Notes: generated by a model from the sequence alone, not told the origin. A stretch of DNA of 64,000 nt from Clostridiaceae bacterium (GCA_012799825.1 JAAZKK010000080.1:1004-65003), one strand, 5' to 3'; positions 3,250 to 64,000 are shown, counted from the stretch's first letter. Numbers and translations are program-made.

Positions 3250-4311
3250 ATGGAAAAGAGATCGCGTTATTTTTTGAAACCGTTGAAAAAGTTTTCGGAT
3301 GTTCGGGTTATATCGCTTCTTTGTCGGACACGTACGCCTTATCTTATTCGCTGTTATGGTGTTGCGATGTCGGAAGAAGATCTGCCGAACGCATCATTCG
3401 AAATAGAAGGCAAAGCGCTTAAAACAACAGATGCTCCACATCGATCAGTACCTGCCGTTCGATTGGATCCGCCTCCTCCTGAGCGCATGGTTGTGTTTGA
3501 ATATCTTGAAGGAGTTTCTTTTTCTGAAATATCCCGCAAAAAGTTGCCTACATTTTCTTGGGAAATGTGGTTTGATCAGATCGCACAGTCGCTCGCGTGG
3601 TTATCCCATATTGCCGGTGCGCCGATCATGCATGGAGATATTGCGCCCGGCAATGTGATGCTTCTTTCATATGACCGACCGGTTCTCGTGGACTTCTCGT
3701 CGGCACGTCTTCTCGATGGCGCATGCCCGACACCGCCGACGATGTTTTCAGGTACCGTATCTTATGCCGCGCCCGAATGCCTAACGGCAGCGCCGTGTCC
3801 GGAAAGTGACCTTTTCAGCTTGGCCATGACGTTTCTTTCCGTTATGTCCGGTGTCCCGGGAAAGCGACTGACGGATAAGAGGATTCGGCGGGAACTTAGA
3901 CGGATTGAATCGCCTTTTCAGGAGAAACTTTTCGGTTGTCTTTCGCCGGATCCTAAAGTGCGCCGAAAATCTGTCGCCGCTTCGTGGACATCGCTCGTCT
4001 ACGGCGCGCCCATCGCGACAAGACAAGATGTTCATATCGCTCCCGTCGCGGCACTAAGTTCAGAACAAAGATCGGAGTCGACAGAGCTTACGTACCGCGA
4101 CACATCGATTGCTGCAACGACAACTGCAGTTGAAGACAATGAAAGGTCACAGGTACCACCTATCCCGTCCGAATGCCGAAAGAATGTGCGAGACGAGACA
4201 CTCACCCAAACGGACGCATTGGAACGCTGTCCCTTTGAAGTGTCAACATGTCCCTTTCTTAAAGCGGCGTCCGCACTTTTATCAGACAAAGAGATATCCG
4301 TGCTACAATGA
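3250..4311 (+). CDS. Ser/Thr-kinase-like protein that lacks the glycine loop and beta3 lysine (possible pseudokinase)
   Basis: Kinase C-lobe motifs are present: HGDIAPGNVM (catalytic loop), VDFS (DFG-like) and GTVSYAAPE (APE). An in-frame stop at 3238-3240 prevents any N-terminal extension. There is no GxGxxG or VAIK. Confidence 0.6.
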   Translation: MEKRSRYFLKPLKKFSDVRVISLLCRTRTPYLIRCYGVAMSEEDLPNASFEIEGKALKTTDAPHRSVPAVRLDPPPPERMVVFEYLEGVSFSEISRKKLPTFSWEMWFDQIAQSLAWLSHIAGAPIMHGDIAPGNVMLLSYDRPVLVDFSSARLLDGACPTPPTMFSGTVSYAAPECLTAAPCPESDLFSLAMTFLSVMSGVPGKRLTDKRIRRELRRIESPFQEKLFGCLSPDPKVRRKSVAASWTSLVYGAPIATRQDVHIAPVAALSSEQRSESTELTYRDTSIAATTTAVEDNERSQVPPIPSECRKNVRDETLTQTDALERCPFEVSTCPFLKAASALLSDKEISVLQ

Positions 4312-4375
4312 AACCGTAAACAGTCGCGGCGATAAGGCGCTGTGGATGTTTTTAAATGATTAGGGATGGTGAACC

Positions 4376-5089
4376 ATGTCAGACCAAACAACATATAAGA
4401 GACAAGTGACGCGTCGTGAAGTGACGCCGAAAGGAGATTCCTCTTCCGCTGATCGCGGCCAAAATCAGCGTTCCGATCAGCGCGCAGATCAGAGCGCCGG
4501 CCAGCGATCTTCGTCGAATCGCAGGAGAAACAGGCGCTCTGGGTCATCCAATCGCAGACAAAAGACGAGCAGTCAACAACGTCCGTCTTCTGATCGATCC
4601 GATCGCAAGGACGATAACAAGAAAGAGGAACAAGATCGTCGTACGACATCGCGGCGGAGACGTTCATCGGGTCGCAAGGGAAGCAGTCAACGACGTCAAA
4701 CACGCCAAACAGACGACAAGAGGGATCAAACACAGCGCAAGAAGACGGATGAGGACAAACGAGAGCGTCCAGTGTCCGACACGCCGCAACAGGAGTTCTC
4801 TAGTGAACAGTTGAAGGATGCGCCGCGTGAATATGACCGTCAGACGTCTCGCGATGTTCCAGCGCGCTTGTCCGATACGATCGGCAAAGATGAATCGTCG
4901 CCGTCGAAAGTGCGTACGCGCTCCTTCGGAGAGAAAAGCGCAAGATCTGGACGCACGACGCCTCAACCGCGCATAAAGCGTTTTTCTGAAGAGGAGACTG
5001 CCGACGATATCGCACGCGATAATGAACGCATCGAGAGAAAAATTGAACTGCAAATCGAGGAAATCGGTCGTATCTCCCTCGATTTATGA
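4376..5089 (+). CDS. Highly charged, R/S/D/Q/K-rich low-complexity protein with a short ordered C-terminal segment
   Basis: A 237-aa ORF with a GGTGA RBS 4 nt upstream. Roughly the first 190 aa are RS/RD/RQ-rich. The C-terminus reads ..ADDIARDNERIERKIELQIEEIGRISLDL. I recognise no family. Confidence 0.5.
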   Translation: MSDQTTYKRQVTRREVTPKGDSSSADRGQNQRSDQRADQSAGQRSSSNRRRNRRSGSSNRRQKTSSQQRPSSDRSDRKDDNKKEEQDRRTTSRRRRSSGRKGSSQRRQTRQTDDKRDQTQRKKTDEDKRERPVSDTPQQEFSSEQLKDAPREYDRQTSRDVPARLSDTIGKDESSPSKVRTRSFGEKSARSGRTTPQPRIKRFSEEETADDIARDNERIERKIELQIEEIGRISLDL

Positions 5090-16690: not shown

Positions 16691-16848
16691 GATAGGAAGC
16701 GTAGTGATACTTTTGAGACGCCTTCTTTCAAAAAGCGTTTTCACGCCACGACACGTCGGTTGTTTTAAAAGAGAGTAACGCAAGTGATTTTGAGACGCCA
16801 TCTTGCGAAAACATTTTCGCGATACGATATGTCGGTTTTTTTGGCAAG
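16691..16848. repeat. Tandem duplication (2 x ~80 bp) in the rsmI-metG spacer
   Basis: Copy 1 is at 16691-16766 and copy 2 at 16771-16848. Both read ga.ag.aa.c..agtgat..ttttgagacgcc.tctt.c.aaaa...ttttc.c...cga.a.gtcggtt.tttt. Confidence 0.6.
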
Positions 16849-48936: not shown

Positions 48937-49016
48937 GCCGCTATTTGACGTTGCAAGTGAGAGCCATCTATGGCGATTTATATTTTTCGGGCGATGAAAA
49001 TCGAATCTTTATGATT

Positions 49017-49739
49017 TCACCATTTATCTCGTGTCGCGCGGCCGTCGCCACTGATCGGGCGAACAGGGCTCGTGTGCGTCGAAGGTGCGTTGGTATTTGT
49101 TTCGTAAAAAGCTTTCACCCGAGCACCCATTTCACGTAAGACATGTAAAAGCGTTCGAGCTGAGTAACGTTTGACGGTCGCGTAGCCTTCACACTCAAGC
49201 CCAAGTTTGCCTGCGATGTAAAGTGCACGTTGCAGGTGGTACTGTTGTGTCGTGACAACTGCCGTTTTGATTTGAAAAACATCGCGAGCGCGCAACATTG
49301 TGTCGTAGGTGTCAAGTCCGTAATGATCCATGAAAATCGCTTCGTCAGGAATACCGTTTTCGATGAGATACGCGCACATGACAGCCGGCTCGTTGTAATT
49401 ATCTACGCGATGATCGCCCGAAACCAAAATCCGATCAGATATACCCGCTTCATACAACGCGATGGCACAGTCCAAGCGGTCGCGCAGCAAAAGTGAGGGA
49501 CGCACGTTATCGATGACTTGTGCGCCGGGTACGATGATGCAATCCACCTGCCGAGAAAGTTTTTGGATCGGCAAAATAGAGCGATTGCTCCGAATCGAAA
49601 TGATGGCGTAGAGCAAAATCAGGCAGAAAGGAAATGCTAAAATCACGCCAAATAAGAAAAAGACGGCGCGTTTTAGTATATCCTTCCAGTTGCTCGATGA
49701 GCGATTTTTCAGATCTGTTTTTTCCTGCATACTGGTCAT
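49017..49739 (-). CDS. sanA: SanA/YdcF (DUF218) family membrane-anchored protein
   Basis: An N-terminal TM segment precedes the DUF218 core ..IIVPGAQV..PSLLLRDRLDCAIALYEAG..ILVSGD... Confidence 0.8.
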   Translation of the reverse strand: MTSMQEKTDLKNRSSSNWKDILKRAVFFLFGVILAFPFCLILLYAIISIRSNRSILPIQKLSRQVDCIIVPGAQVIDNVRPSLLLRDRLDCAIALYEAGISDRILVSGDHRVDNYNEPAVMCAYLIENGIPDEAIFMDHYGLDTYDTMLRARDVFQIKTAVVTTQQYHLQRALYIAGKLGLECEGYATVKRYSARTLLHVLREMGARVKAFYETNTNAPSTHTSPVRPISGDGRATRDKW

Positions 49740-49779
49740 GATAAAATAAAGCGAAATGAATGTCCATCAGGAGATAGTC

Positions 49780-51600
49780 ATGCGCCGCGAATCATTCTTT
49801 TTAAAAATTAAACCTGCGTTTAGACACGTGTTTTTTATCATACTTTGTGTTTCATTGATGTTTTTAGCGGCATGTCATCCCGGTACAAATAATGGCTTTA
49901 TACCAACTGATTCGGAGCCGTCTAATGAATCCGTCCCACCGAAAGAGACGGATCAAGAAACGACTAATACCGATGCGCTTAAGACTTCGCCGGAAATCCA
50001 TCGAGGGTATCCGGCATCGCGTGAGGAGTGCTATGTCATGGCATATACGGGAAACGAGTCATTGAATCTGAACCCGTTTGCAGAAGGAGGGACTCAGTTT
50101 CCGGTCGATCCGACAGGCTTTTATCAGCCCGTGTACGAAACGCTTTTCCGTTTTAATCCCATGAAAGCAGATTACCAGGGCGTTCTTGCAGAAAGTTATA
50201 CTGTAAAAGCGGGGAGTGTCTCCGTCACCTTAAAGCCGGACGTCTTTTGGCATGATGGCTATGCTTTATCATGTCAGGACGTCATATATACTATTGAACT
50301 CCACCTCCAGCTTCAGACATCCCAAGGCCAAGAGCTTTCGCAATATATTAGAGATATTCGTATTCCTGATTCGCTCAACATGGACATCGTTCTTTTTTCC
50401 GATATCCCCGATGGAGCACACCGCCTTATGGAGGCGCTGACCCATCTTCTGATTTTGCCTCGTCACACATGGCAACCTGTTGTAGGCGAACACCTGACAC
50501 TGGACGCGGTGCGTGCGCTTGCGGTCGTTCCTGTCAACGGAACGGGTGTGTGGTCTTATGTGGGAAGCGATGTGTACGCGATGACATTTTCCTTGTTCAG
50601 AGAGAACGATGTGCCGGAGGGTACTCCCTCTTACCTTATCCTGTCAAAATACGCGCAAAAAGAATTGTCTGCGCGTGCGCTGGCATGCGGTAACATCGAT
50701 TTTGCTCTTCAAGGAGAGGCCTTGGAAGAGCTGTGTGAAGAATTGCCGCTAGCGATTCAAAAGGATGAGGTCTTGCTATCGCCTGTATATGCCGGTGAGC
50801 GAATCGCCGGTATTGCCATTAACACGAAAAGCAAGCCGTGGTATGGAGATCGGGCATTTCGGCAGTTGTTGTCGTTATTGGGAAGAGTTGAAGTAGAGCA
50901 TACTGTCTATCACACAGACGAGCGGCAATATTCGCCAGCCTGCGTTTTCGCGCTTCCGAGCACGGTCGACCAATTAGATCGGCATGCGCTTGAAAATGTG
51001 CTCGCTCCTTTTTCGGAAGAGGCGGTACAACAGCTCATGGAAGAAGCTAAGCTCTCCCTCGATCAAGATAGCGGCAAGCTGCTTTTTAATGGTGAAGCGA
51101 TGACATCGCTTTCACTCACGTATCCTTCAGATGATTTGACGGCGCTTACCCTTTGCAAAGATTATGCTTCCACCTGCTCGTCCTATGGAATTGTCATCGC
51201 TTTCAATCCGGTCTCGCGCAATGTCTGGCAAGAGAGATGTATTAACGGGGACTACGAGTTGATCTTCATGCCGTCTGACGTGGATGAAACACCGCTCGGC
51301 GCACTGGAGCGTCTGCGCTCGATTCCCTCTTTACGAGAAGACAATTCCATCGGTCAAGTCGAACTTGATACTTCGCTCTTTTTGGAAAAAGAACAGGCAT
51401 TTGTTTCCACCTTTAATCAAGACATTCTTCCGTATATGGAGGACATGACGCACTGGCTTATAGAAGAAGCTCTCTACATTCCGTTAGACGCAGGTATGGT
51501 TGAGTACGGTGTAAAAAATGGCGTCATACATCCTGATTTTCCGATCAATACTCTCTTTTCAAGAGATGTTATCGTTGGTGAAACGGTCCTCTATCCGTAG
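49780..51600 (+). CDS. Family-5 (peptide/nickel/opine type) ABC substrate-binding lipoprotein
   Basis: Lipobox (FLAAC) with a ~600-aa SBP_bac_5-like body. AGGAGA RBS before ATG 49780. Track start 49756 would leave only 16 bp to the divergent sanA. Confidence 0.8.
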   Translation: MRRESFFLKIKPAFRHVFFIILCVSLMFLAACHPGTNNGFIPTDSEPSNESVPPKETDQETTNTDALKTSPEIHRGYPASREECYVMAYTGNESLNLNPFAEGGTQFPVDPTGFYQPVYETLFRFNPMKADYQGVLAESYTVKAGSVSVTLKPDVFWHDGYALSCQDVIYTIELHLQLQTSQGQELSQYIRDIRIPDSLNMDIVLFSDIPDGAHRLMEALTHLLILPRHTWQPVVGEHLTLDAVRALAVVPVNGTGVWSYVGSDVYAMTFSLFRENDVPEGTPSYLILSKYAQKELSARALACGNIDFALQGEALEELCEELPLAIQKDEVLLSPVYAGERIAGIAINTKSKPWYGDRAFRQLLSLLGRVEVEHTVYHTDERQYSPACVFALPSTVDQLDRHALENVLAPFSEEAVQQLMEEAKLSLDQDSGKLLFNGEAMTSLSLTYPSDDLTALTLCKDYASTCSSYGIVIAFNPVSRNVWQERCINGDYELIFMPSDVDETPLGALERLRSIPSLREDNSIGQVELDTSLFLEKEQAFVSTFNQDILPYMEDMTHWLIEEALYIPLDAGMVEYGVKNGVIHPDFPINTLFSRDVIVGETVLYP

Positions 51601-51906
51601 CGTTCCGTTTGCTTCATCCTGTGCTTGATTCTAGTAAATTCTCATGTGATGCATGCGGCTTAAAGAATGCTTAAGGCGTCGAAATCCCGCACACGATCGT
51701 TTTATTTGCCAAACGAAATATATTTTGTTAATCTACAAGTTAGATTTGCCTAACTTGCGAGAATTTGTATCCTTAGACGGCTTTCAATGGATTTATTGAG
51801 CAACCGGATTACGCGATTCAATCATTATGGCTCTGTTGAATAGCTGATACGACCTTCTTACTCCGCAGGTTTGCTTTTTAACGACAGAAAAAGGATTAAG
51901 ACAGAC

Positions 51907-53634
51907 ATGCTCGATAAATTGCTTTTTCGGTACATAGGCCATGCCAAAAAATACATTGTCATAAGCGTTATTCTTATGATGCTCAAGGTTGTCGGCAGTT
52001 TTTTTATTGCCTTTTCGATCGGCGGGATCATTCAAGGGATGTTCTCTTCTGCCGCAGGTTATTTAGGCGCGAATATTCCGCTGTTCCTCCTAGGAGCGGT
52101 CTTGAGATCAGGCTGTCTTTATTTAGTCACACGCTATCAAACGAAAATAACAGGTGAAGTCAAGACAAATCTCAGAATGGAAATGATAGCCAAAGTCATG
52201 CGTGTGGGGCCGGCGTATCTGAATTACACCTCGACATCGAACATGATGAATATGGGATCGGATACGATTGAGCAACTGGAGAATTATTACGGACGCTTTT
52301 TGCCTCAGTTTTTCGGAAGCTTCGGCATGAGTGCCGTCACATTCGCTGTTTTGATCTCCGTAAATCGACAGACCGGTCTTTTGTTCCTTGTTCTTGCCCC
52401 CGTCGTACCTCTGATATTGAAAGCCATTTTGGAGAGAGTTAGCCGTAAACAAAAGGAATACTGGCGAAGTTATCAGGACGTAGGCCAATTGTTTCTAGAC
52501 AGCTTACAGGGTATGACGACGCTAAAGATTTTTTCTGCAGATGAAAAGAGGGCAGAAGAAATACATGAAAAATCTGAGATTTTTCGCACTGAAACGATGA
52601 AGATTCTTAAGATGCAGCTCAATTCGATCACCGTTATAGAATGGATCGCCTATGGCGGCAGTGTCGCGCTTATAGCCCTTGGCCTTTCGCATACTCCTTT
52701 TACCGTCCAAAGCCTCCGATCGATCATTGTTTTGGCGTTTATTGCGATGGAGGCTTTTAGCCCGATGGTGACGCTAATATCGAGTTTCCATGTCGCTATG
52801 ACGGGTGTCGCGGCAGGAAAGCAATTAATTGATTTCTTTGACCTGCCTGAACAAGATGACGCTCATAAAAAGGAGGTTGAGAGTATTTCAGGCGGTATTA
52901 CCGTAAGAGAGCTTGACTTTTCCTATCCTGGAAGCGATCGCAAGGTGTTAGATCGCGTGAACGCTGAATTCACATCGAACGGTTATACATCGGTCGTCGG
53001 CGCCTCAGGTTCCGGCAAGACAACGCTCGTGCGACTCTTGACTGGGCAGCTTAACGGTGGCGAAGAGGCTATTTTCTGGGGCGGGCACGCGTACTGCGTG
53101 TATAAGAAACAATCGATTACGGAAAACATGATCCGCATCGCGCACGATGCCCATATTTTCGAGAAAACGATTCGAGACAATTTGCTCATGGGAAAAAGCA
53201 CGGCGACGGATCAAGATTTAATTGAAGCCTTGAAGACGGTTCAACTGTATGACGAAGTTGAACCGAGGGGCGGACTTGATCTTTTCATAAAATCGGGCGG
53301 CAGCAATCTTTCCGGCGGACAAAAACAGCGCCTCGTTCTCGCAAGAGCCATATTGCACGATGCCAAGGTTTATGTATTGGACGAGGCCAGTTCTAACATC
53401 GATGCTGAAAGTGAAGCCGTCATTTTACAGGTGATCGAGGAGATGGCCAAGAAGAAAATCGTCATACTCGTGTCTCACCGACTGTACGCCGGCAAGAATG
53501 CTAAGAACATTTACGTCTTAGATGAAGGAAGGTTGGTGGAGGAGGGTCGCTTTACGGAGCTTGTCAAAGGCGAAGGAATTTACCAGAGGATGTGGCAGGC
53601 GCAGGATCGGCTTGAACGGGGGCTTGGCCTATGA
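51907..53634 (+). CDS. ABC transporter permease/ATP-binding protein, exporter fold (CydD/MptA-like)
   Basis: A 6-TM domain precedes an NBD with GASGSGKTT, LSGGQKQRL and VYVLDEAS. Confidence 0.85.
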   Translation: MLDKLLFRYIGHAKKYIVISVILMMLKVVGSFFIAFSIGGIIQGMFSSAAGYLGANIPLFLLGAVLRSGCLYLVTRYQTKITGEVKTNLRMEMIAKVMRVGPAYLNYTSTSNMMNMGSDTIEQLENYYGRFLPQFFGSFGMSAVTFAVLISVNRQTGLLFLVLAPVVPLILKAILERVSRKQKEYWRSYQDVGQLFLDSLQGMTTLKIFSADEKRAEEIHEKSEIFRTETMKILKMQLNSITVIEWIAYGGSVALIALGLSHTPFTVQSLRSIIVLAFIAMEAFSPMVTLISSFHVAMTGVAAGKQLIDFFDLPEQDDAHKKEVESISGGITVRELDFSYPGSDRKVLDRVNAEFTSNGYTSVVGASGSGKTTLVRLLTGQLNGGEEAIFWGGHAYCVYKKQSITENMIRIAHDAHIFEKTIRDNLLMGKSTATDQDLIEALKTVQLYDEVEPRGGLDLFIKSGGSNLSGGQKQRLVLARAILHDAKVYVLDEASSNIDAESEAVILQVIEEMAKKKIVILVSHRLYAGKNAKNIYVLDEGRLVEEGRFTELVKGEGIYQRMWQAQDRLERGLGL

Positions 53635-55280
53635 AGAAAAGAAGGTCTCTTGCCATCATGAAGGATTTGCTGATCTTGGGTAAGGAGCAGATCCCCGACC
53701 TCCTCCTTGCCATTGTAACGGGGGTTCTTTCATTCTTTTCCAGTGTGGGAATCGCCGTGCTGGCCGCTTTGCTCATTGTCAACGCAAGCGGTGTTGGCGG
53801 CGGTCTTCTGTCCTCTAAAAACACAGTCATTCTGATGGCAATATTCGCCATAGTGCGAGGTTTGATGCGCTATTTAGAGCAATACATGAACCACTTGGTA
53901 GCTTTTAAGATTCTATGTATGCTCCGCGACAAGGTCTTTGCCGCCGTAAGGCGACTGGCTCCTGCCAAGTTGCAGGGAAGCAACAAGGGATCACTCATTT
54001 CGATCATCACGGCCGACATTGAATTGGTTGAAGTATTTTACGCGCATACGATCTCTCCTATTATCATCGCTCTTATCTGCGGTATCACTTACCTTATCCT
54101 AATCGCTTCATTTTCTCCTCTCATCGCCGTCGTGACGCTCGTTTCTTACGTCGTGATGAGTGTTATTTTGCCTGTCATTTTCTCTAAGTGGGCAAAACAA
54201 CACGGGCGAGCCATTCGCAAGGAAATCGGTCACTTGAATAACGTATTTTTGGATCTATTGCGCGGTATGACGGAAATTATGCAATTTGCATACCGCGATA
54301 AGGCCATTCGTACGGTGCAAGCCTCTAATAAAACTCTAGTCGACAAACAGAGCCGTCTCATCGAGCAATTGGCACTGCTTCTTGCCCTAGAGGACGTGGT
54401 GGTCGTTCTGACGAGCGGGGTCGCTGTACTTGTCGGCGTCCTGACAGGTCTTTCTTGGACGATTCTTCTGCCTCTTGTTTTCGGAATTTTCTTTAGCTTT
54501 CCTCCGATGATCAACGTGGCCTCTTTGGGCAATGGCTTGTCGCAATCACTTGCCAGCGGTGAACGAATTCTGAATTTGTTAGAGGAAGAGCCGATCGCAG
54601 AAGAAGTAAAAGACGGCATCGACTTAAATCTCGAAGATAGGGTGGCAGACCCCCTTGTTAGGATCAGCGATCTTTCATTCTCCTACGGCGATCAATCTGT
54701 CCTCGAGGACTTCAACTTGGATATTTCAGAAGGCGAGATCGTGGGAATTCGGGGCGAGAGCGGTTGCGGCAAGTCGACGCTCGTCAATTTAATGATGTAT
54801 TTCAGGCCGGCGGACAAGGGAGATATTTTAATTGCCGGGCACCCGATCCAAAGTATCAACACGCAATCGTTATGGAAAAACATCAGCTACATGACGCAAA
54901 GCGCTGAATTTTTCGAGGGCACCATCCGTGACAATTTGCTGATCGCAAAGCTGAATGCCACAGATGAGGAACTGAGGCAAGCTTTGCGCCAGGCTTCGAT
55001 TCTGGACTTTGTCGAGAAACTGGAGCATGGGTTGGATACGACGTTAACGGAACTGGGCGACAATTTCTCAGCCGGAGAAAGGCAGCGATTCGGGCTTGCC
55101 CGCTGTTTCTTGGAAAATACAAAAATCTTACTTTTAGATGAACCTACGAGCAATCTCGATGTTTTAAATGAAAACATTATTTTAGATGCTCTAAAGCGCA
55201 ATAAAAAGGATAAAACGATCCTTTTAATAAGTCACCGCGAAAGCAGCCTGAAAATTTGCGATCGCATCATTCAGATGTAG
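53631..55280 (+). CDS. ABC transporter permease/ATP-binding protein, exporter fold (CydC/MptB-like), signature motif degenerate
   Basis: A 6-TM domain precedes an NBD with GESGCGKST and ILLLDEPT. The signature reads FSAGE (55065-55079) instead of LSGGQ. It overlaps the upstream gene by 4 bp. Confidence 0.85.
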   Translation: MKKRRSLAIMKDLLILGKEQIPDLLLAIVTGVLSFFSSVGIAVLAALLIVNASGVGGGLLSSKNTVILMAIFAIVRGLMRYLEQYMNHLVAFKILCMLRDKVFAAVRRLAPAKLQGSNKGSLISIITADIELVEVFYAHTISPIIIALICGITYLILIASFSPLIAVVTLVSYVVMSVILPVIFSKWAKQHGRAIRKEIGHLNNVFLDLLRGMTEIMQFAYRDKAIRTVQASNKTLVDKQSRLIEQLALLLALEDVVVVLTSGVAVLVGVLTGLSWTILLPLVFGIFFSFPPMINVASLGNGLSQSLASGERILNLLEEEPIAEEVKDGIDLNLEDRVADPLVRISDLSFSYGDQSVLEDFNLDISEGEIVGIRGESGCGKSTLVNLMMYFRPADKGDILIAGHPIQSINTQSLWKNISYMTQSAEFFEGTIRDNLLIAKLNATDEELRQALRQASILDFVEKLEHGLDTTLTELGDNFSAGERQRFGLARCFLENTKILLLDEPTSNLDVLNENIILDALKRNKKDKTILLISHRESSLKICDRIIQM

Positions 55281-55339
55281 AAAAACGTAGTGAGAAGACC
55301 TGCGCATAGATAAAGAGGAATCGGAGTTGAGGTGGATAA

Positions 55340-55891
55340 ATGACAAAAGTGACATTTAAAGCTTTTACGATAAGGGACATTGTTTTCCTCGCAGTAATCA
55401 CGGCGGTTACTTTACTTTTCAGCGGACCTTTTGCGCCGCTTGTCATGACAGCGACAAAACTGGGTGTTCAAGCTATCGCGATGGCATTGCCTTTTTCGCT
55501 AATGACTTCCGTTGGACTTCGCAAAGTGAAAAAACCGGGTTCTTTGACACTCATAGGCCTCTTTTCCGGTCTCGTCCTCTTACTGATGGCACCCGTTATG
55601 TTCTTCAATCAGCTCATAGGCGCTCTCCTTTCCGAAGGCACGGCTTTACTTCTTTTCAAGACGTATGACAACAAAAAAACTATTCTATTTAGTTCAGGGT
55701 TGTTTTCTTTCTTTACAATACCGCTGACAGCCATCGTGAACATTCTAGCCAAAGGGCGATCCATTGAAGAGCAAATAGGAAATCCGCTCACATTTGTCTT
55801 AATTGTTGCAGGAACAATAATTTTGGGCTTTGCAGGTGCATTCATCGGCAATAAAATAGCGGATGAACTGGAAAAAGCCGGCAAGCTGTAG
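55340..55891 (+). CDS. Putative ECF-transporter S component (MptD/YkoE, Trep_Strep-like)
   Basis: A 183-aa hydrophobic protein with about 6 TM segments and a basic/acidic C-terminal tail. It lies directly upstream of the EcfT and duplicated EcfA genes. Confidence 0.6.
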   Translation: MTKVTFKAFTIRDIVFLAVITAVTLLFSGPFAPLVMTATKLGVQAIAMALPFSLMTSVGLRKVKKPGSLTLIGLFSGLVLLLMAPVMFFNQLIGALLSEGTALLLFKTYDNKKTILFSSGLFSFFTIPLTAIVNILAKGRSIEEQIGNPLTFVLIVAGTIILGFAGAFIGNKIADELEKAGKL

Positions 55892-55898
55892 GTCCGAT

Positions 55899-56579
55899 AT
55901 GTATCAGGATTCCAAGGCAATTCATCCGATTATGTCACTCATCTTTAGTCTGCTGCTTTTTGTGACAGGATTGCTCTTTGTAAAAGAAGGCTGGTTCCAT
56001 TTTTACGTTCTGACGTTCATCGTTCTTCTTCTTCTTTTCAGGTTTGAAAAGACAATGTTAAGACTCATTCCGTTCATCATTATCTTCGGCAGTGTCATGG
56101 GCGGCCTGACGATGGTCAATGGCAGTCGGCAAGATGCTTTATACGCCTTTTACCGCGTGTTGGCGCTGGGGTTGGCAGGCACACTAAGCATCAGTATAAG
56201 ACCCATCCGCCTCGTTCGATCCATGAATCAGTTGCGCATCCCGCGCTGGATCAGCTTAGCCGTCTTAATTGTCATCCGGTTTATCGAGATTTTCCGCGAA
56301 GAAATAAGATGTATTAGGCAGGCGATTCGCCTGCGAAATATTCGCCTTACAGAATCGCCTGTTTTATGGGGCAGAGCTTTTTTTATTCCGCTTGTTATCC
56401 GCGTCTTAAGCATTTCCGAAGGATTGGCCATTTCACTGGAGACGAGAGGTTTTTCTACCAATAACGAAGGCACGTCCTATGAAGTGATCCGTTTCAGAAA
56501 AAGAGATTTGGCTTTTTCTTGCCTTTTTACCGGGGGCCTTGCCGTCTTTATCTGTTTATTCTTTGGAGGTTTTCGGTGA
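55899..56579 (+). CDS. Energy-coupling factor transporter transmembrane (T) component
   Basis: A CbiQ/EcfT-like membrane protein with the coupling-helix region ..IRQAIRLRN.. and ..ISLETRGF... Confidence 0.8.
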   Translation: MYQDSKAIHPIMSLIFSLLLFVTGLLFVKEGWFHFYVLTFIVLLLLFRFEKTMLRLIPFIIIFGSVMGGLTMVNGSRQDALYAFYRVLALGLAGTLSISIRPIRLVRSMNQLRIPRWISLAVLIVIRFIEIFREEIRCIRQAIRLRNIRLTESPVLWGRAFFIPLVIRVLSISEGLAISLETRGFSTNNEGTSYEVIRFRKRDLAFSCLFTGGLAVFICLFFGGFR

Positions 56580-58036
56580 GCTTTGCCTTGGAAGCAAAAA
56601 ACTTAAGCCTTTCCTATGACTTTTCAAAAGAAAAGGCAGATGAAGAGAGACATTGGATCTTTAAAGATCTTAGTTTCCGGATGAAATCGGGAGAGTTGAT
56701 ACTGATGACAGGTCCTTCTGGTTGCGGAAAATCGTCCTTGATGAACATGATCAACGGCGTGATTCCGTATCTTAAGCATGCATGCGTTCGCGGCGATGTC
56801 TATATCGAAGGACAGAAGATTACCGACAGCACCGTTCGTGAACGGACAAAATTTGTCGGCAGCGTGTTTCAAAATCCGAGGGAGCAAATTATTTTCGACG
56901 ATGTATCGGCTGAGATCGTTTTTCCGATGGAGAATATAGGGGAAACGTCCCAAAGAATGAAAGAGAAGCTGATAACCTTGCTGGACTTGACCGGTCTTAT
57001 CGCCGATGCTAAGACGGCGACCTTGTCGGGCGGTGAGAAACAGAAGCTCATGACGGCCTGCACTTTGGCGATGGGACAGGAGATCCTGCTCTTGGATGAA
57101 CCATTGGCCAACATGGACGTAAAATCGGCGATCGAATTGTTAAGTCTTCTGAGAAGATTAGCAAAAGAAGAAGGGTACGCCATCTTATTGATTGAGCACC
57201 GTCAGGAAATGGTCTTACCTTACGTCGATCGTGTCTTTTTACTAAAACCAAGTGATCTCCCAAACGTCGAAATGACATTAGAATATTGGGAAGAGAAAGA
57301 AGCGTATCAAAAGTATATTTGCCAAGAATCGCATAGCGTTGATCGTCGGAGAAACTGGAAAGCTAACGACGAAACACATGATGACGGAGAAGTAGATCAT
57401 GTTGGAGATACAATAGCCGAGAGAGAGAATTCTCGAGAAGTGCTGTTTTTTGTCAACAATGTAGACTATTTTACGGGCAAGCGACCCCTGTTAAAAAACT
57501 TTTCATGGCAAGTAAAGAGGGGAGAGTCATGGGTCGTCTTAGGAGAGAACGGATGCGGCAAAACGACACTGCTCAACTTGTTAATCGGCTTTGAAAAGCC
57601 GGCAAGGGGCGAAATTACGTGGTCATATAGCAAAAAAGATCAGAGAAAGAAGATCGGCTACGTTTTACAGAATCCGGATTATCAGCTCTTTATGCCAAAA
57701 GTCAGAGATGAGCTTTATTTGAATGCAAAATCGTCGGACTTTGTAGAAGAATTAATTCAGCTTTTCGATCTTAACGGGATGCTCGACCGTCATCCGCTCA
57801 GCTTAAGCGAGGGGCAAAAAAGAAAGCTCGGCTTTGCCTGCATGATCGCCCAAGAACCGGAGGTCCTGTTTTTAGACGAGCCGACGGTAGGACTCGACAC
57901 GGCCAGCATGGACCAGCTGCTTTATGCTCTCGCGTTACTGAAAGAAAGATCGGGCATTGATTTGACGACGATAAGCGTCAGCCACGACAAACGAGCCATC
58001 CCTTATCTAGGAAATGAGTTTTTGTCGCTGTCTTAG
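56576..58036 (+). CDS. ECF/ABC ATPase with two fused NBDs (YkoD/MptE-like)
   Basis: NBD1 has GPSGCGKSS, LSGGEKQKL and LLLDEP. NBD2 has GENGCGKTT, LSEGQKRKL and LFLDEP. The GTG start follows a GGAGG RBS and overlaps the T-component stop. Confidence 0.88.
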   Translation: MSFALEAKNLSLSYDFSKEKADEERHWIFKDLSFRMKSGELILMTGPSGCGKSSLMNMINGVIPYLKHACVRGDVYIEGQKITDSTVRERTKFVGSVFQNPREQIIFDDVSAEIVFPMENIGETSQRMKEKLITLLDLTGLIADAKTATLSGGEKQKLMTACTLAMGQEILLLDEPLANMDVKSAIELLSLLRRLAKEEGYAILLIEHRQEMVLPYVDRVFLLKPSDLPNVEMTLEYWEEKEAYQKYICQESHSVDRRRNWKANDETHDDGEVDHVGDTIAERENSREVLFFVNNVDYFTGKRPLLKNFSWQVKRGESWVVLGENGCGKTTLLNLLIGFEKPARGEITWSYSKKDQRKKIGYVLQNPDYQLFMPKVRDELYLNAKSSDFVEELIQLFDLNGMLDRHPLSLSEGQKRKLGFACMIAQEPEVLFLDEPTVGLDTASMDQLLYALALLKERSGIDLTTISVSHDKRAIPYLGNEFLSLS

Positions 58037-58312
58037 CTCTTGTTTTCGTTCTATAATCAGTTTATTTAACCGTATCTGAGAAATAATTTTTTGTCGCTGT
58101 CTTAGTTTTATAAATCGATTATTGTCCGCTATTTGACAAGGCATTTCAGTTTAGAAATTGTCCGAGAATGTAAAATATTCGCAAAAAACGTCAAAACGAA
58201 TTGACATGCTGAAGAAGAGTATGATAATTATTGTATACTTTCTTTAACATGATGTATGAAAAAGCTAACATCATGAAAAGAGAAAGAGTCCTATGAGATT
58301 CTTGGAGGCAAC

Positions 58313-58753
58313 ATGCATAACCGTACAAAAGTAGCTATTTTATCGGCAACATCCAACGTCATCTGGTTTATTTTGACTTTTATTTGGAATTGCTTCAGGG
58401 TAACACACCTTGAAGGCGAAGAGCTTGCTCGCTCGTGGGGCATATATTTCTTGATACTGGTCGCCGGTTTTCTTGTGCTGATCGCACTCAGTGCGATACT
58501 CGTCATGACAAAGGAAAAACGCTCCGGCGGGCAGGGTTTTGAGGAAATAATTGATGAACGCGACCGTCATATTGAAGTCTTTGTCATGAAAGTATTCGGT
58601 TTGGTCTTTTTTCTCTCCTTCATTGTTGTCGTTAGCCTACTGGCACTGGGTTTTGGATTACAGATTTTCTTCGGAGGCGTGGCCTTCATGGTGTTGTTGT
58701 CCGATCTTGCCATCTGGATAACATACATCATCGCTTATGAGAGAGGTCTGTAA
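58313..58753 (+). CDS. Small 4-TM membrane protein (DUF2178/DUF3796-like) paired with an HTH regulator
   Basis: Two TM pairs are separated by a charged loop containing ..IIDERDRHIE... It ends 2 nt before the HTH gene. Confidence 0.55.
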   Translation: MHNRTKVAILSATSNVIWFILTFIWNCFRVTHLEGEELARSWGIYFLILVAGFLVLIALSAILVMTKEKRSGGQGFEEIIDERDRHIEVFVMKVFGLVFFLSFIVVVSLLALGFGLQIFFGGVAFMVLLSDLAIWITYIIAYERGL

Positions 58754-58755
58754 TC

Positions 58756-58974
58756 ATGGCAAAGAAAACACGCATCACGAACAACATCCGCACGCTTCGC
58801 TTCATGGCCGGCGAAATGACACAGCAACAGCTGGCAGATGAAGTGGGCGTTACTCGCCAGACCATCTTGGCCGTGGAGAACGGCAAATACTCGCCTACCT
58901 TGGAATTAGCGTTTGCCATCGCTAAAGTGTTCGGCAGACCGCTGGAAGAGGTTTTTTCTTACGAGGACGAGTAA
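58756..58974 (+). CDS. Small XRE-family HTH transcriptional regulator (YozG-like)
   Basis: Contains ..NIRTLRFMAGEMTQQQLADEVGVTRQTILAVENGKYSPTLELAFAIAKVF... Size is 72 aa. Confidence 0.85.
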   Translation: MAKKTRITNNIRTLRFMAGEMTQQQLADEVGVTRQTILAVENGKYSPTLELAFAIAKVFGRPLEEVFSYEDE

Positions 58975-58993
58975 AAAATGCGGAGGTACGATA

Positions 58994-59563
58994 ATGGATA
59001 TTCTCAACAAAGGCCTGCCGGAACTGATGCGAGCTGCCGTAGTGACACGCTACGGCGATCCGGATGTCATCGAAATTATGGAAGTTCCTCTGCCCGCATT
59101 AAAATCGAACACGATCATGGTGCGCGTAGCGGCCAGCGCAGTCAACTCCGCAGATGCTCGGACGAGGGGAGGCGGAGCAATGATTCATAATATTACTCCC
59201 ATGGATCCGGAGCGCATCCAGCTGTCAGTTTGTTGGGTGGCGTTGGTACTCATCTATCTTTTAGGGGATGTGTTGCGACTATATGAAAAAGGTCGAGAGG
59301 CCGCTATGATCGACGGGAAACCGATGACCCAAACCCATCTTTTAATGGCTGCTTTTCTGATGTTAATTCCCATCTTGCTGGCAATTGGTATGGTATTCCT
59401 GCCGAAGGGTATCGCAAAATGGTCCGGTATTATTGGCTCCGTTATCCTTTTTCTTATCAATGTCGTCGGCGTCACAGGCTATACAGGACTGTTTGATCGC
59501 GTGCTGATTCTGTTGAGCCTAGCGATGAATGTATTCACAGTTGTCTGGACTTGGCTTTGGTAA
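58994..59563 (+). CDS. Chimeric ORF: N-terminal fragment of a zinc-type dehydrogenase/quinone oxidoreductase fused in frame to a 4-TM (DUF6326-like) membrane protein
   Basis: Residues MRAAVVTRYGDPDVIEIMEVPLPALKSNTIMVRVAASAVNSAD look like the GroES-like N-terminus of MDR enzymes, but the Rossmann domain is missing. From M at 59180 (its own GGAGG/GGAG RBS) the sequence is hydrophobic. Confidence 0.55.
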   Translation: MDILNKGLPELMRAAVVTRYGDPDVIEIMEVPLPALKSNTIMVRVAASAVNSADARTRGGGAMIHNITPMDPERIQLSVCWVALVLIYLLGDVLRLYEKGREAAMIDGKPMTQTHLLMAAFLMLIPILLAIGMVFLPKGIAKWSGIIGSVILFLINVVGVTGYTGLFDRVLILLSLAMNVFTVVWTWLW

Positions 59564-59584
59564 GAGCATACGTCATACATTGCA

Positions 59585-59810
59585 TTTTCCCTTTCGCTAG
59601 CATTGAAGCTAGCAGATGATTTTTCGGGTACAGGATACTAAGACACGTCTTATCTGTGAGAGCATAGAGCTAGGTGAAGCGCCGTTGGAAAAGTAAGCCA
59701 GTGTCCGGAGCCTTATCCGCGAGTGTATTGAGCCTAGACGAACGTGATGTTAATCTGACTGCAAACGGTGAATCTTTTAGACGTAAGCATTGAGCCGGAC
59801 GTGATAATAC
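59585..59810. repeat. Four degenerate tandem units (~63-bp period) with the core GCATTGAGC
   Basis: The cores are GCATTGAAGCTAG (59599), GCATAGAGCTAG (59662), GTATTGAGCCTAG (59725) and GCATTGAGCCGG (59787). Each is preceded by a cttatc/cttttag-like segment. Confidence 0.55.
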
Positions 59811-59919: not shown

Positions 59920-62900
59920 TTATGCTTCAGTGTTTTTCCGAGATTCTTCTTTCAATACACTCGATCTCTTCTTGCGCAGTACCAAGAGCACACAGGCTAG
60001 AGACAGTAGCGCAAAACTCATCCACGGTTGGATTCCGACACGTTCGCCCGTTTTCGGGAGAATGTTCATGCTCTTGACTTGACTGTTGATCACAACGAAA
60101 CCGTTCTCAACATCGCCTGTAATGATGCAATCGTAATCCTCGATAAGAATTTCATCAATTGTATAGACGATCTCTTTTCCATCCTTGTACTGATCCAGTT
60201 CGATGAAAGTGTCGGTCCATTCATTGTCATTTGTCAAGACTAAGATCTTGCCTGTGTCTTCACCGTCAGCGATCAATTTGATCGTCACTGAATCAGGATG
60301 TTCACCGGATGGGTCATTCAAAACAGCCCAAACCTTGGTCACCGGGATGGAAATCTTCACGGTTGCGTGACGGTTTGTCACGTTGTGGCCTGAAACTTCG
60401 GAGGTGTACCCGGCAACCGCGTCTTCCGAGATGCTGTAGACGATCTCTTCACCGCCCTCATACTTCGGAAGATCAGCAAAAGTCCAAGTCCAGTCGCCGT
60501 TAGCGTCGGCAGTTACCTCGACCCAGTCGATCTCTGTAGCACCATTCCAGATGCGGATGATGATGCTCTCAGGTCTTTTGCCGTCTTGGTCGTCGTTGTC
60601 GTCCCAGGTCTTAGTACCTTCGATCGTGATCTTCTCGGGCGTGTGACAGTTTGTCACGAAGTAGCCTGTTTCGGCATCGCCCGAGATTTCAGCCGTGTAA
60701 CCGTCAACGTCCGCTTCTTCTACGGTGTAGACAACCCTCTGGCCAACTTCACCGGGCTTGAAGATGTCAAGCTCCGTAAACGTATCAGTCCAGTTGTTGT
60801 CCGCCGACAAGGTGACTCTCTTCTCGGTGTCAACACCGTCGGCGAGGAGCTTGATCGTAACGAACTCAGGTCTCATACCGTCTTGGTTGTTCTCGTCAAC
60901 CCAAGCTTTGGTCACCTGCACCGTGGTCTTTCCGGGCGTATGCGTGTTCGTTACGTTATAGCCTGAGATTTCTGAGCTGTAGTTTTCGATTGAATCTTCT
61001 GTAATCGTGTAGGTGATGAGCACACCATTTTCGTACTTCGGAAGATTTTCGAAGATCCAAGCCCAACCGTCATCTTCTGTTACCACCACCGAGTCGATCT
61101 CAGTGTCACCATTCCAGATACGAATCGTGATGCTCTCTGGCCTATTGCCGTCTTGGTTCTCGGCGTCATCCCATGTTTTCGTACCTTCGATCGTGATCGT
61201 TTCAGGTGTTTTTTTGTTGGTCACGGTGTAACCGGTGGTCATGTCGCCCGTTATCGTTGCTTCGTAGCCGAAGCCTATTTCTGACTCTTTAAAGAAGTAG
61301 TTAATTTCATTTTTGTCGCTATCGTACTTCGGCAAACCGGTGAAGCTCCAAGCCCAGATTCCTTTTTCATCGGGTGCGACCGTCGTGTCATCGACAAACT
61401 CATCTGCTTCTCCGACTTTCTTATAAAGATTGATCGTGATCGACGCAGGGCGCTTGCCGTCTTGGTCGTCATTGTCCTCCCAGATTTTGTTGCCTGAAAC
61501 ATCAACACGCGGAATGTCGTTGGTAACTTTTAAGTCTTGCGGACCTGTGTTTTCCTCTGTTTCAGGCTCGATGGTGAAGTAAATTTTCTCTTCAAATTTG
61601 GCATACCCTTCCGGAGCAGCCTTCTCGATGAGGTAGTATTCTTTTCCTACGAGCAGGTTGGGGAAGTAGGCGATACCGTCGATATTCGTTTTGACATCAT
61701 CTAAGACGATTAGATCAGATCCGTCACCGGCGCCCCCCACCTCATAGACCGTAAAAACGGCGTTGTGGAGTTTGCGATTAGGATCATTGACATCGCTTTT
61801 TTCCAAGCGCACGTCGCGCTTGGGGTAGGTCACTTGTACTTCTACCTTTAACGCTTCGACAAAGGATAGACCGTCATTCATTGAAAGAGCAAAGGAGTTG
61901 TAAGCCTTTTCACCGTCGAGGATCGTGTTGTCATCTTCGATGAAATTATGGGTGTGGATATGTACTTCTTCATTAACATCAATCTTTTGATTGTCTTTCA
62001 AAACGGCCTTTATCATCGTTACCCGTGACATATCATCGACTGTTGTTACCCAGTTCGCACTATAGTTTTCTTGTGTCGTCGGTTTTACCGGGTCGGTCGT
62101 GTAATAAAAGTCGAACTTTTCATGCGGATCGATCGAGACTAGAGGCGTCCTAAATGCAGATCCTCTCGGTTTATACTCGCCGCTCTGACATGGGACGATT
62201 GCGATATCGCCATCGTAGGGAAGAATATCAAGAATGATCAAACGGTCAATTTCTCTACCGCTATTGTTTTTGAGCATCCAGCGGTAGTCAATCGCATCGC
62301 CGATGGTCGCTTTTCTCCCGAGCGATGAAGCATATCGCGTGTCAGGATCCGAGCTCAATTTGACATACTTAATTGACGAAAGCACCTTAGGCGGGTAGAT
62401 CTTAAAGGACGTCGATCCCATGTTGGTATACTTGGTATTGTCGTCCGGACGGTTCGCCGCATCTTTCAGGATGTTGGACCAGACACCGGACGGTGTATCA
62501 AATTGAAGAATACCGTACTGTTTTCCGTCTTTGACAGCGATTTTATTGTTGTCAATGCTGAGGCAAGAATAGATCGTGTACGTGCCGACTTGTAGGCGTT
62601 CCGTCGCCGTAAAGCTCAGTTCGTAGCGGTTCTGTGTTGATCTATAAATTGAACCGTCCAGGCTGGGGATGTCGGTTGTCTCTGGCTGAGCGATGACCAG
62701 ATTGTAGTCCGGTCTATAACCGCGCAGAACTTCGACGCTCTTAAATTTTGTTGGATCTTCGACAGGTTCCAGTCCGTCCGGTACGAGATAGTAGATGTTG
62801 GCGTTTTCCGGAATGTTTGCCTCACAGAAATTTCCGTAACGACGGTGATAGTAGCCGAGCCTTGTATCGATGATATCGCCGGCGAAAAATTGCGATCCAT

Positions 62901-64000
62901 TTGTCACATGGACGTTGTTACACAATGTGATCGTCTCGTACTGCATGCGGAAGTAATCGTTCGTGTAGTCAGATTTGGAGCTATTTGTACTAATGACATC
63001 TCCCGCATAATATCGTTTGTACTTTGAGGTAATCGCAGTCGTAGCGTAGTCGTAGGTCGTGTAGACCTCCGGTGTTTTGTTCGAATCCAAAAGGTTCTTT
63101 AGAGTGTTATAGGTTGACAACTTAATATCTGCTATGACTTCCGTCCATAGAACAGATTTGAATTTATTGATTTCAGTTTGACCTTTAAGGGCAACGCCTC
63201 CGTTTGGATATTCGAATAAAATGTAGCGGTAATTTTCACCGCCGGTAAATGCCTGCCAGCCTTGATTATCGAAGGAACTGCTGTAGCTTGCGTAACTTAC
63301 AATCGGCACGTTATCGGATAGCAAAGTTATCGTACCGTCAGACGCAACACCGTAAGCTTTTGTACCTTGCAGTTTTTCCTGCATATAAGTCAGATCGTCA
63401 CCGCTTAATCCCAAAAGCATGATACGAATCTCACTGGGTTGCGTATACCGGCTTGGAGTGATTCTAGAAGTTTTGATGATGAGTTCACGGCTATCCGTGT
63501 CGTCTTTTCCATAACTTATGTACCAGCTTGATACATTCCGATGCGTATAACGAATACGTTGATTGTTTAGATCTTCAGGGTTATAAGATATGCAAGTTGT
63601 ATTGCTCCACTGCGTGGATGTGCCGGCTAAAGATTCATAGGCTTGGTTGATTGGCTTGTTATACTTAGAAGTACCCCAAGACACAGAGGCGCTCTGCTCG
63701 GACGATGGCGGCGTCGGAGGTTCTTGTTCGAGGATGTAATAACTTCTCGAACAGTAGCCTGTGTATGGTCCGAGATCTGCCTGCGGTACTCCGTCAACGA
63801 CAGGTTGGATGCTGAAATTGACCCTTAAGGATTTATAGTTGTATTTGCTGTTGAAACTGGATAAGTCAATACCTCCAAGATCCAACGTAATTGAAACCCG
63901 ATAGGGCCAAGAGTCAGAGAACCTGCGGGTGATATCCTTATAATACTTGCCGCTTTCAGAGTCAAAGGTCCATCCTGTTCCTTCCTTAACGGTTGTGCCC
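59920..64000 (-). CDS. Large LPXTG-anchored surface protein with about 7 Cna-B-type repeats (5' end outside the window)
   Basis: The C-terminus has LPKTG, a hydrophobic stretch and RKKRS. There are repeated ..KTWDD..DQDGKRPESI.I.. / ..KVW.D....G.RP..VTIKL.ADG.. modules and a prealbumin-like ..VFTVYEV..DGIAYFPNLLVGKEYYLIEKAAPEGY.. domain. My own translation of 63886-64000 shows the frame stays open past the track's TTG start. Confidence 0.9.
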   Translation of the reverse strand, partial: GTTVKEGTGWTFDSESGKYYKDITRRFSDSWPYRVSITLDLGGIDLSSFNSKYNYKSLRVNFSIQPVVDGVPQADLGPYTGYCSRSYYILEQEPPTPPSSEQSASVSWGTSKYNKPINQAYESLAGTSTQWSNTTCISYNPEDLNNQRIRYTHRNVSSWYISYGKDDTDSRELIIKTSRITPSRYTQPSEIRIMLLGLSGDDLTYMQEKLQGTKAYGVASDGTITLLSDNVPIVSYASYSSSFDNQGWQAFTGGENYRYILFEYPNGGVALKGQTEINKFKSVLWTEVIADIKLSTYNTLKNLLDSNKTPEVYTTYDYATTAITSKYKRYYAGDVISTNSSKSDYTNDYFRMQYETITLCNNVHVTNGSQFFAGDIIDTRLGYYHRRYGNFCEANIPENANIYYLVPDGLEPVEDPTKFKSVEVLRGYRPDYNLVIAQPETTDIPSLDGSIYRSTQNRYELSFTATERLQVGTYTIYSCLSIDNNKIAVKDGKQYGILQFDTPSGVWSNILKDAANRPDDNTKYTNMGSTSFKIYPPKVLSSIKYVKLSSDPDTRYASSLGRKATIGDAIDYRWMLKNNSGREIDRLIILDILPYDGDIAIVPCQSGEYKPRGSAFRTPLVSIDPHEKFDFYYTTDPVKPTTQENYSANWVTTVDDMSRVTMIKAVLKDNQKIDVNEEVHIHTHNFIEDDNTILDGEKAYNSFALSMNDGLSFVEALKVEVQVTYPKRDVRLEKSDVNDPNRKLHNAVFTVYEVGGAGDGSDLIVLDDVKTNIDGIAYFPNLLVGKEYYLIEKAAPEGYAKFEEKIYFTIEPETEENTGPQDLKVTNDIPRVDVSGNKIWEDNDDQDGKRPASITINLYKKVGEADEFVDDTTVAPDEKGIWAWSFTGLPKYDSDKNEINYFFKESEIGFGYEATITGDMTTGYTVTNKKTPETITIEGTKTWDDAENQDGNRPESITIRIWNGDTEIDSVVVTEDDGWAWIFENLPKYENGVLITYTITEDSIENYSSEISGYNVTNTHTPGKTTVQVTKAWVDENNQDGMRPEFVTIKLLADGVDTEKRVTLSADNNWTDTFTELDIFKPGEVGQRVVYTVEEADVDGYTAEISGDAETGYFVTNCHTPEKITIEGTKTWDDNDDQDGKRPESIIIRIWNGATEIDWVEVTADANGDWTWTFADLPKYEGGEEIVYSISEDAVAGYTSEVSGHNVTNRHATVKISIPVTKVWAVLNDPSGEHPDSVTIKLIADGEDTGKILVLTNDNEWTDTFIELDQYKDGKEIVYTIDEILIEDYDCIITGDVENGFVVINSQVKSMNILPKTGERVGIQPWMSFALLSLACVLLVLRKKRSSVLKEESRKNTEA

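Follow-up and report, generated by a model that had tools for sequence, protein, structure and literature searches.

A probably iron-repressed module of a CydDC-like ABC pair and an MptD-type ECF importer in a clostridial genome, with heme as its most likely ligand

Several bacterial loci in which paired ATP-binding cassette (ABC) proteins and energy-coupling factor (ECF) importers occur together have been described in connection with iron. In the sia operon of Streptococcus pyogenes, siaD and siaE, encoding putative ABC transporters, are followed by siaF, siaG and siaH, encoding the substrate-binding (S), transmembrane coupling (T) and ATPase (A) components of an ECF importer, and the whole lies behind the gene for the NEAT protein Shr (PMC6593403, Table 1). 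The operon is under the control of MtsR, whose regulation is tied to iron and manganese (PMC6593403), and passages of PMC12671055 and PMC7299338 that cite Chatterjee 2020 report SiaFGH as an importer of heme. In Streptococcus equi, EqbHIJ is required for equibactin-dependent 55Fe uptake, and EqbKL has a weak efflux phenotype (PMC3672683). The equibactin locus is repressed by EqbA, a DtxR-like protein without an SH3 domain; its operator is TTGTTAGATGTATCTAACAA / AACTATTATTGTTAGATGTATCTAACAATAATAGTT, and in electrophoretic mobility-shift assays (EMSA) binding is palindrome-dependent and requires Fe2+, Zn2+ or Mn2+ (PMC3672683). In Mycobacterium avium subsp. paratuberculosis (MAP), mptABCDEF, located in a metal-related island, is a predicted operon of unknown function with genes for two putative ABC transporters; its structure is debated, the data suggesting that mptE and mptF may be separate (PMC4132290). 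The S components of heme ECF transporters share ‘remarkably little’ sequence similarity (PMC7299338). Here we analyse six neighbouring genes at positions 49780–58036 of a 64,000-nucleotide stretch of DNA from a Clostridiaceae bacterium (GCA_012799825.1, JAAZKK010000080.1:1004-65003), the whole of which is called the window below, and compare them with these systems.

Our analysis suggests, with a probability of about 0.65, that five of the six genes form a probably iron-repressed transport module that combines a CydDC-like ABC pair with an MptD-type ECF importer and most likely handles heme, and that the sixth, encoding a solute-binding protein (SBP), is independent of them. All six lie on the + strand. 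The SBP (49780–51600) is a family-5 lipoprotein with the lipobox FLAAC, matching Pfam SBP_bac_5 at 45.2 bits (cutoff 32.4). Then come two half-transporters in which a transmembrane domain (TMD) is joined to a nucleotide-binding domain (NBD), each with ABC_membrane and ABC_tran domains: the CydD-like ABC1 (51907–53634) and the CydC-like ABC2 (53631–55280). The S component (55340–55891) is an ECF substrate-binding membrane subunit of the MptD/Trep_Strep type. It is followed by EcfT (55899–56579), a transmembrane coupling subunit of the CbiQ family (Pfam CbiQ, 57 bits), and by a fused double EcfA ATPase (AA; 56576–58036), which contains two ABC_tran domains and for which NCBIfam ECF_ATPase_1 and ECF_ATPase_2 are the top matches. 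The SBP gene and ABC1 are separated by 306 nt, ABC2 and S by 59 nt, and S and EcfT by 7 nt; ABC1 overlaps ABC2, and EcfT overlaps AA, by 4 bp each. An earlier note on this DNA had described six co-directional genes with these junctions, encoding a lipoprotein SBP, two TMD-NBD proteins, an S component, an EcfT and a double EcfA. All the open reading frames (ORFs), coordinates and junctions were reproduced, and the domain calls were borne out by Pfam and NCBIfam profile searches.

How well is the five-gene block preserved as a unit? Relatives were collected by scanning one genome per species with an alignment of the S component, giving 80 loci of 31–78% identity from Clostridia, Christensenellales, Oscillospiraceae, Mollicutes-like bacteria and Treponema. 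In these 80 other genomes the block occupies other genomic contexts. The S-T-AA unit is kept wherever the locus extends far enough, with EcfT after S and AA after T, and in 30 of the 36 loci whose flanks are long enough the ABC pair lies next to it on the same strand. Three gene orders are found: ABC1-ABC2-S-T-AA in 44 loci, S-T-AA-ABC1-ABC2 in 3 and S-T-ABC1-ABC2-AA in 2. The linkage of the ABC pair to the ECF genes thus survives rearrangement, including interleaving, and this argues for a shared function. A likeness to mptABCDEF in the layout of an ABC pair plus S/T/AA had been remarked upon earlier, and a layout of that kind is indeed a conserved unit in the related loci. The interleaved order, with the CydDC-like pair between EcfT and EcfAA, is that of L029 and L033, and is an unusually intimate mixing of two transporter types.

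The block is an accessory element of the chromosome. On comparison of the window with the sister locus L005 by blastn, homology extends past the SBP stop codon as far as 51605 and restarts at 58806, with ~45 bp between these points in L005. The intervening 51606–58805 is an accessory segment that contains the five transporter genes, with the regulatory gap before them and a small ORF after them; because homology breaks at 51605, the 306-nt gap belongs to this segment. L006 shares 48983–58052 of the window, and 58053–58947 is missing there. Together with a control region of their own, the five genes make up an accessory operon at window positions 51606–58052. The same block has been found among strain-variable accessory genes of Parvimonas micra (PMC11076991). 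Recent horizontal transfer was considered from composition and was set aside, since the lower GC content of the block (0.458, compared with 0.504 upstream) goes with a similar GC content at third codon positions and is not diagnostic.

The S component exceeds the gathering threshold of Pfam Trep_Strep (PF09605), at 40.1 versus 28.7 bits. An identical protein is annotated in Clostridiaceae metagenome-assembled genomes (MAGs), where its NCBI name is that of an MptD family member, and a homologue of 78% identity is found in a Saccharofermentanales MAG. The AlphaFold2 (AF2) model has a predicted local distance difference test (pLDDT) score of 91.1 and a predicted template-modelling (pTM) score of 0.85. 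Its top fold match in the Protein Data Bank (PDB) is 5edl, an ECF S component (TM 0.66/0.62, probability 1.0), and the second is TmRibU, in agreement with the earlier assignment as an S component of the MptD/YkoE type. A sequence search for a solved structure of an MptD-family protein found none. The S gene lies directly upstream of its own EcfT (CbiQ) and AA (double ABC_tran), the arrangement of a group I (dedicated) ECF transporter. M87, Y109, K62, K65 and E99 of the S component are invariant across 45–80 family members, among which there is no invariant histidine. The invariant Met, Tyr and Lys residues are candidates for the axial ligation of heme and the binding of its propionates, unlike the His coordination reported for LhaS. 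In L069 the S homologue (3968–4507) has an in-frame stop codon, and may represent a pseudogene or result from faulty assembly.

The control region contains a perfect palindrome at 51736–51757, CAAGTTAG-N6-CTAACTTG, with the core GTTAG-N6-CTAAC at 51739–51754. It lies inside the 306-nt gap and is the only copy in the window. The core is identical to that of the EqbA operator tested by EMSA (PMC3672683). In L006 the arms of the palindrome are the same as those of the window and the spacer differs, while in L012 and L016–L019 one or two copies of GTTAG-N6-CTAAC lie upstream of ABC1. The 80 related loci, 1.17 Mb in all, contain 67 exact sites, 22 of which are located within 460 bp upstream of the block, where 1.4 would be expected (15.7-fold; Poisson P ~4e-19). 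Most of the others are in the promoters of NEAT genes, ygbA-like genes, small DtxR-like genes, feoB (L014), a DUF3793-flavodoxin pair (L014) and a second, divergent MptD-ECF/ABC paralogue (L012). DtxR-family genes of 126–138 aa are found within ~1.5 kb of the block in six loci. From the palindrome and the genes of its regulon we infer that the operon of the window is probably iron-repressed, the palindrome being the predicted operator of an EqbA-like repressor of the DtxR family. More widely, GTTAG-N6-CTAAC appears to mark an iron regulon that crosses phyla. The EqbA-type operator could thereby serve as a simple sequence marker for the iron regulon in uncultured anaerobes, with the block, feoB, flavodoxin and NEAT genes under it across distant phyla.

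Individual copies of the site are located at 16809 and 16904 in L012 and at 9888, 12602 and 12623 in L014, and further copies precede NEAT genes in L020, L023 and L026. The site often occurs as two copies 34–50 bp apart. Where it precedes DtxR-like genes autoregulation is possible. As Rfam returns zero families across the whole window, the 306-nt gap included, the idea that this gap might contain a riboswitch or another RNA element was rejected.

A gene for YgbA_NO (PF11756), a small Cys-rich protein, is a frequent member of the operon in other genomes. It lies upstream of ABC1 in L041, L042, L044, L045, L055, L062, L065, L067, L068, L071, L074, L075 and L091, and in this position the ORF is directly contiguous with the start of ABC1 or overlaps it. 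It is located between ABC2 and S in L012 (9503–10000) and L014 (5496–6011), and is also present in L072 and L079. A conserved Cys-Pro motif in the protein, with more cysteines after it, resembles a heme-regulatory motif. No ygbA-like gene is present in the 64-kb window, and only 59 nt separate ABC2 from S there.

The ABC pair resembles CydDC in several respects. In Escherichia coli CydDC the heme is ligated by CydC H85 and CydD H312, and the NBD of CydD is degenerate (PMC10374445). When the PDB was searched with the TMDs only, the top match of ABC1 was CydD (7zd5_D, 7.6e-20; next family 5e-9) and that of ABC2 was CydC (1.9e-15; next 7.5e-10), followed by TM287/288, MsbA and others. These searches returned no YbtPQ or IrtAB chain at E <= 1e-3, and Pfam finds no extra N-terminal domain on the pair of the kind provided by the SIP domain of IrtA. 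The TMDs match CydD and CydC specifically, and kinship with YbtPQ and IrtAB, to which the pair had been likened earlier, was rejected.

On alignment CydC H85 corresponds to ABC2 H88, and CydD H312 to ABC1 H295. ABC2 H88 is invariant in 62 of 62 homologues, as is H139, and ABC1 H295 in 56 of 56; the motifs surrounding H88 and H295 are EQxxNH and FHVAMxG, respectively. The two NBDs are not equivalent. ABC1 lacks the Q-loop glutamine, giving a degenerate ATP site, while the NBD of ABC2 is consensus apart from its signature, FSAGE, which had been pointed out before and contrasts with LSGGQ in ABC1. Across the family the ABC2-type signature is xSAGE/LSGGE. The missing Q-loop Gln of ABC1 and the deviant signature of ABC2 fall in the same composite site, and therefore the asymmetry seen in ABC2 is that of a CydD-type degenerate site.

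What is the ligand? NEAT-domain proteins are heme binders. NEAT-domain surface proteins flank the block in seven loci (L020, L022, L023, L026, L028, L041 and L045), and these fall in two distant branches of the neighbour-joining tree of the S component, one of which is the clade nearest to that of the window. Taken with the match of the TMDs to CydD and CydC, the conserved CydDC heme ligands, the degenerate-site asymmetry and the precedent of sia, these neighbours make heme the most likely ligand of the block.

The ligand might instead be a siderophore or other metallophore, as in the equibactin system. The ECF unit would then import an iron chelate in the manner of EqbHIJ, and the ABC pair would export the apo-chelator as has been suggested for EqbKL. 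The operator core is that of the EqbA site, and EqbHIJ and EqbKL have the uptake and efflux phenotypes described above. Moreover mptABCDEF is placed in a metal-metabolism island, and feoB, FecCD and flavodoxin genes occur in the neighbourhoods of the related loci. We nevertheless regard a chelate system as unlikely. No family for non-ribosomal peptide synthetases (NRPS) or siderophore synthesis recurs among the ~130 immediate neighbours scanned, and none is found in the window; the NEAT proteins, as partners, are specific for heme; neither of the two histidines that ligate heme in CydDC varies in the ABC pair; and the TMDs have no YbtPQ or IrtAB match.

The similarity to CydDC could also be taken literally. 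The pair would then be a genuine CydDC, acting in cytochrome bd maturation, or in thiol export and defence against nitrosative stress, and would stand beside an unrelated ECF importer of a vitamin or metal. ABC2 exceeds the equivalog cutoff of NCBIfam CydC (TIGR02868) by 5 bits, at 334.4 versus 329.05, and the heme ligands are conserved. The YgbA_NO genes that are often in the operon belong to a family (PF11756) named ‘Nitrous oxide-stimulated promoter’, and ygbA of E. coli is NO-induced. Yet only one of the two subunits passes: ABC1 scores 329 bits with NCBIfam CydD (TIGR02857), below the cutoff of 435. No cytochrome bd (cydAB) family is present among the matches listed for the other ORFs of the window or for the scanned neighbours of the related loci. 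The ABC pair and S/T/AA are linked through all three gene orders, interleaving included, and the operator they share upstream belongs to an iron regulon. A genuine CydDC beside an unrelated importer is thus highly improbable.

Alongside what is observed of gene content, synteny, boundaries, co-conservation, operator enrichment and ligand-residue conservation, a mechanism can be proposed for the block as an iron-repressed heme module, covering its regulation, substrate and direction of transport. In iron sufficiency an EqbA-like (SH3-less, DtxR-family) repressor would bind GTTAG-N6-CTAAC at 51739–51754; in iron limitation it would leave this site, and the operon would be derepressed. The MptD-type S component, EcfT and EcfAA would act as a dedicated group I ECF importer. 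Its substrate would most likely be heme, as suggested by the NEAT neighbours and the precedent of SiaFGH, and less likely another iron chelate. ABC1 and ABC2 would pair as a heterodimer of the CydDC type, in which one ATP site is degenerate and the other consensus; since the CydDC heme ligands are conserved, this heterodimer may hold heme between ABC2 His88 and ABC1 His295. The pair would move heme across or within the membrane, outward if the analogy to CydDC holds. During import by the ECF unit, an outward pair could provide a relief valve or pass heme on to acceptors outside the cytoplasm. The earlier note had put forward an import/export pair for one metabolite or metallophore, and the idea fits the evidence, which sharpens it to heme.

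Several points weigh against this interpretation. In the window there is no gene for a DtxR-like repressor, and no NEAT, heme-degrading, heme-utilisation or cytochrome gene. The S component scores 38 bits with the NCBIfam ‘MptD family’ model TIGR02185, below its cutoff of 76.45. The block would belong with the known SiaDEFGH, EqbHIJKL and MptABCDEF kind, but it is placed there by architecture, family names and context, and a profile search that found at least 1582 family members has no named streptococcal protein among the 120 matches listed. The same operator and architecture serve equibactin in S. equi, and so the ligand could be an iron chelate. The logic of expressing an exporter and an importer of heme together is not self-evident. 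Finally, a scan for terminators 3′ of the SBP gene and in the 306-nt gap gives none that is convincing, so that the operon boundary is drawn from comparative evidence only, and transcription may read through from the SBP gene into the block.

A more ambitious proposal can be put forward tentatively. The CydDC-like pair and the MptD-type ECF transporter might constitute an obligate two-transporter heme relay, in which ECF import is coupled with CydDC-type flipping or hand-off, possibly inward. Such a relay would occur widely among anaerobic Clostridia, Mollicutes-like bacteria and spirochaetes, placed under an EqbA-type cross-phylum iron regulon, with YgbA_NO as a dedicated heme/iron partner. 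If true, this would give transporters of the CydDC family a role in heme acquisition, beyond the maturation of cytochrome bd.

The SBP gene has a different history. Its homologues form only seven clusters in a collection of 5.8 billion proteins, and the neighbourhood of every cluster was looked up. In six of six lineages (29–82% identity) the SBP gene follows the same core of serS, Impact_N, YebC, a 353-aa gene and a divergent DUF218/SanA-like gene. The DNA beyond it varies. The ABC/ECF block follows only in the window and in L006. Downstream of the SBP gene there is a LytTR two-component system in L001/L002 (71% identity), the same system preceded by small gene remnants in L005, a convergent CN_hydrolase in L008–L011 (30%) and HTH genes in L004 (29%). 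The SBP gene is thus found without the block in four of the five assessable lineages besides that of the window; in the sixth, L003, the contig stops at the SBP. Identity to the SBP of the window is 82% in L005, which lacks the block, and 80% in L006, which has it. Conversely, the SBP was not found within 10 kb in any of the 80 S-component loci (tblastn; family hidden Markov model at E <= 0.01).

The best PDB relatives of the SBP are oligosaccharide/oligopeptide SBPs of Thermotoga (4pfu, 2e-9). A role as a heme or nickel binder like HbpA or NikA was rejected: the match to 4oet, a putative peptide-binding protein, is weak (E 0.005), the top matches are oligosaccharide or peptide binders, and there is no operator upstream. 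The SBP is an orphan family-5 lipoprotein of the conserved chromosomal backbone, with no demonstrable link to the downstream genes. The earlier note had taken it as part of one six-gene composite and had raised the possibility of an SBP-dependent importer built on an exporter fold, naming the co-conservation of the SBP with the ABC/ECF genes in relatives as the deciding point. The neighbourhood comparisons reveal no such co-conservation and support neither idea, removing from the locus the false lead of an SBP-dependent exporter-fold importer. A single six-gene system, with the lipoprotein delivering substrate to the ABC pair or to the ECF unit, might be read from genes adjacent on one strand, a gap with no detected terminator and the recurrence of the arrangement in L006, but it is largely refuted and scarcely credible given that the SBP is kept without the block in L001, L002, L005, L004 and L008–L011, the block is kept without the SBP in the 80 other loci, the gap falls within the inserted segment and has an operator of its own, and the nearest solved relatives of the SBP bind oligosaccharides or peptides.

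In the window (49017–51600) and in L001–L011 the SBP gene is always divergently paired with the DUF218/SanA-like gene, at the end of the serS-to-YebC block. The SBP diverges fast, with ~30% identity between syntenic copies, and the DNA immediately 3′ of its gene is a hot spot for insertions and rearrangements.

Further features lie downstream. A multi-pass membrane ORF of 146 aa (58313–58753, + strand), outside the conserved module, has no Pfam or NCBIfam match and is missing from L006 and L005; it is preceded by a near-consensus promoter, TTGACA-16-GATAAT, at 58201–58228 (11/12 in a promoter scan). The region 58806–59595 is homologous to small remnants (HTH_3 and ADH_zinc_N fragments) downstream of the SBP in L005. 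It contains an ORF (58913–59563) of chimeric or decayed appearance, with an N-terminal fragment of PIG3 quinone oxidoreductase and a weak match to DUF6326. On the − strand, 59920–63885 is an ORF of 1321 aa that occupies the place of the LytTR two-component system and the lysA-dapAB genes downstream in sister genomes. A Cna_B match (E 1.9e-109) among the scanned ORFs of the window probably belongs to it, in which case it would be a surface adhesin. The remainder of the window is ordinary chromosome, with trigger factor, ClpP, tRNA synthetases and a PnrA-type ABC system.

How does the locus compare with the known systems? Like the CydDC of E. coli and Mycobacterium, the pair has its best TMD matches in the right sense, ABC1 with CydD and ABC2 with CydC, conserved axial heme histidines and a degenerate NBD in the CydD-like subunit. 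It differs in that R81 and R136 of CydC are replaced by an invariant Gln and His, in having no linkage to cydAB and an ABC1 that lies under the CydD cutoffs, and in being tied obligately to an ECF importer and an iron operator. The mptABCDEF locus of MAP, from which the MptD family of S components takes its name, likewise has two putative ABC transporters; its host is an actinobacterium, and it is likened to the window by description.

The sia operon of S. pyogenes has the same gene order as the window, with two TMD-NBD ABC proteins followed by the ECF S, T and A components. Control by a metal-dependent repressor is also shared, as a prediction in the case of the window, and MtsR is a protein of the DtxR family. 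The association with NEAT genes is shared by the relatives of the block only. In contrast to sia, there are no shr or shp NEAT genes and no SBP-dependent heme importer of the siaABC type near the block, the host is an anaerobic Saccharofermentanales/Clostridia MAG, and the operator is EqbA-type, with no MtsR box; the likeness is one of architecture. LhaSTA of Staphylococcus lugdunensis is similarly an iron-regulated heme ECF importer beside NEAT (Isd) genes (PMC7299338). It is regulated by Fur, and the cited text of PMC7299338 mentions no partner ABC pair.

The eqb locus of S. equi combines the importer EqbHIJ with two fused permease-ATPases, EqbK and EqbL, under an operator whose core is identical to 51739–51754, and EqbA is without the SH3 domain, as are the DtxR-like proteins of 126–138 aa beside the related loci. 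It differs from the window in being part of an NRPS siderophore cluster on an integrative and conjugative element, the window having no biosynthetic cluster, and in having the importer genes first; EqbKL has been compared with YbtPQ, whereas the pair in the window is CydDC-like. The conserved CydDC histidines together with the EqbA-type operator provide a testable explanation for the siaDE, eqbKL and mptABC genes, which have gone unexplained in these systems.

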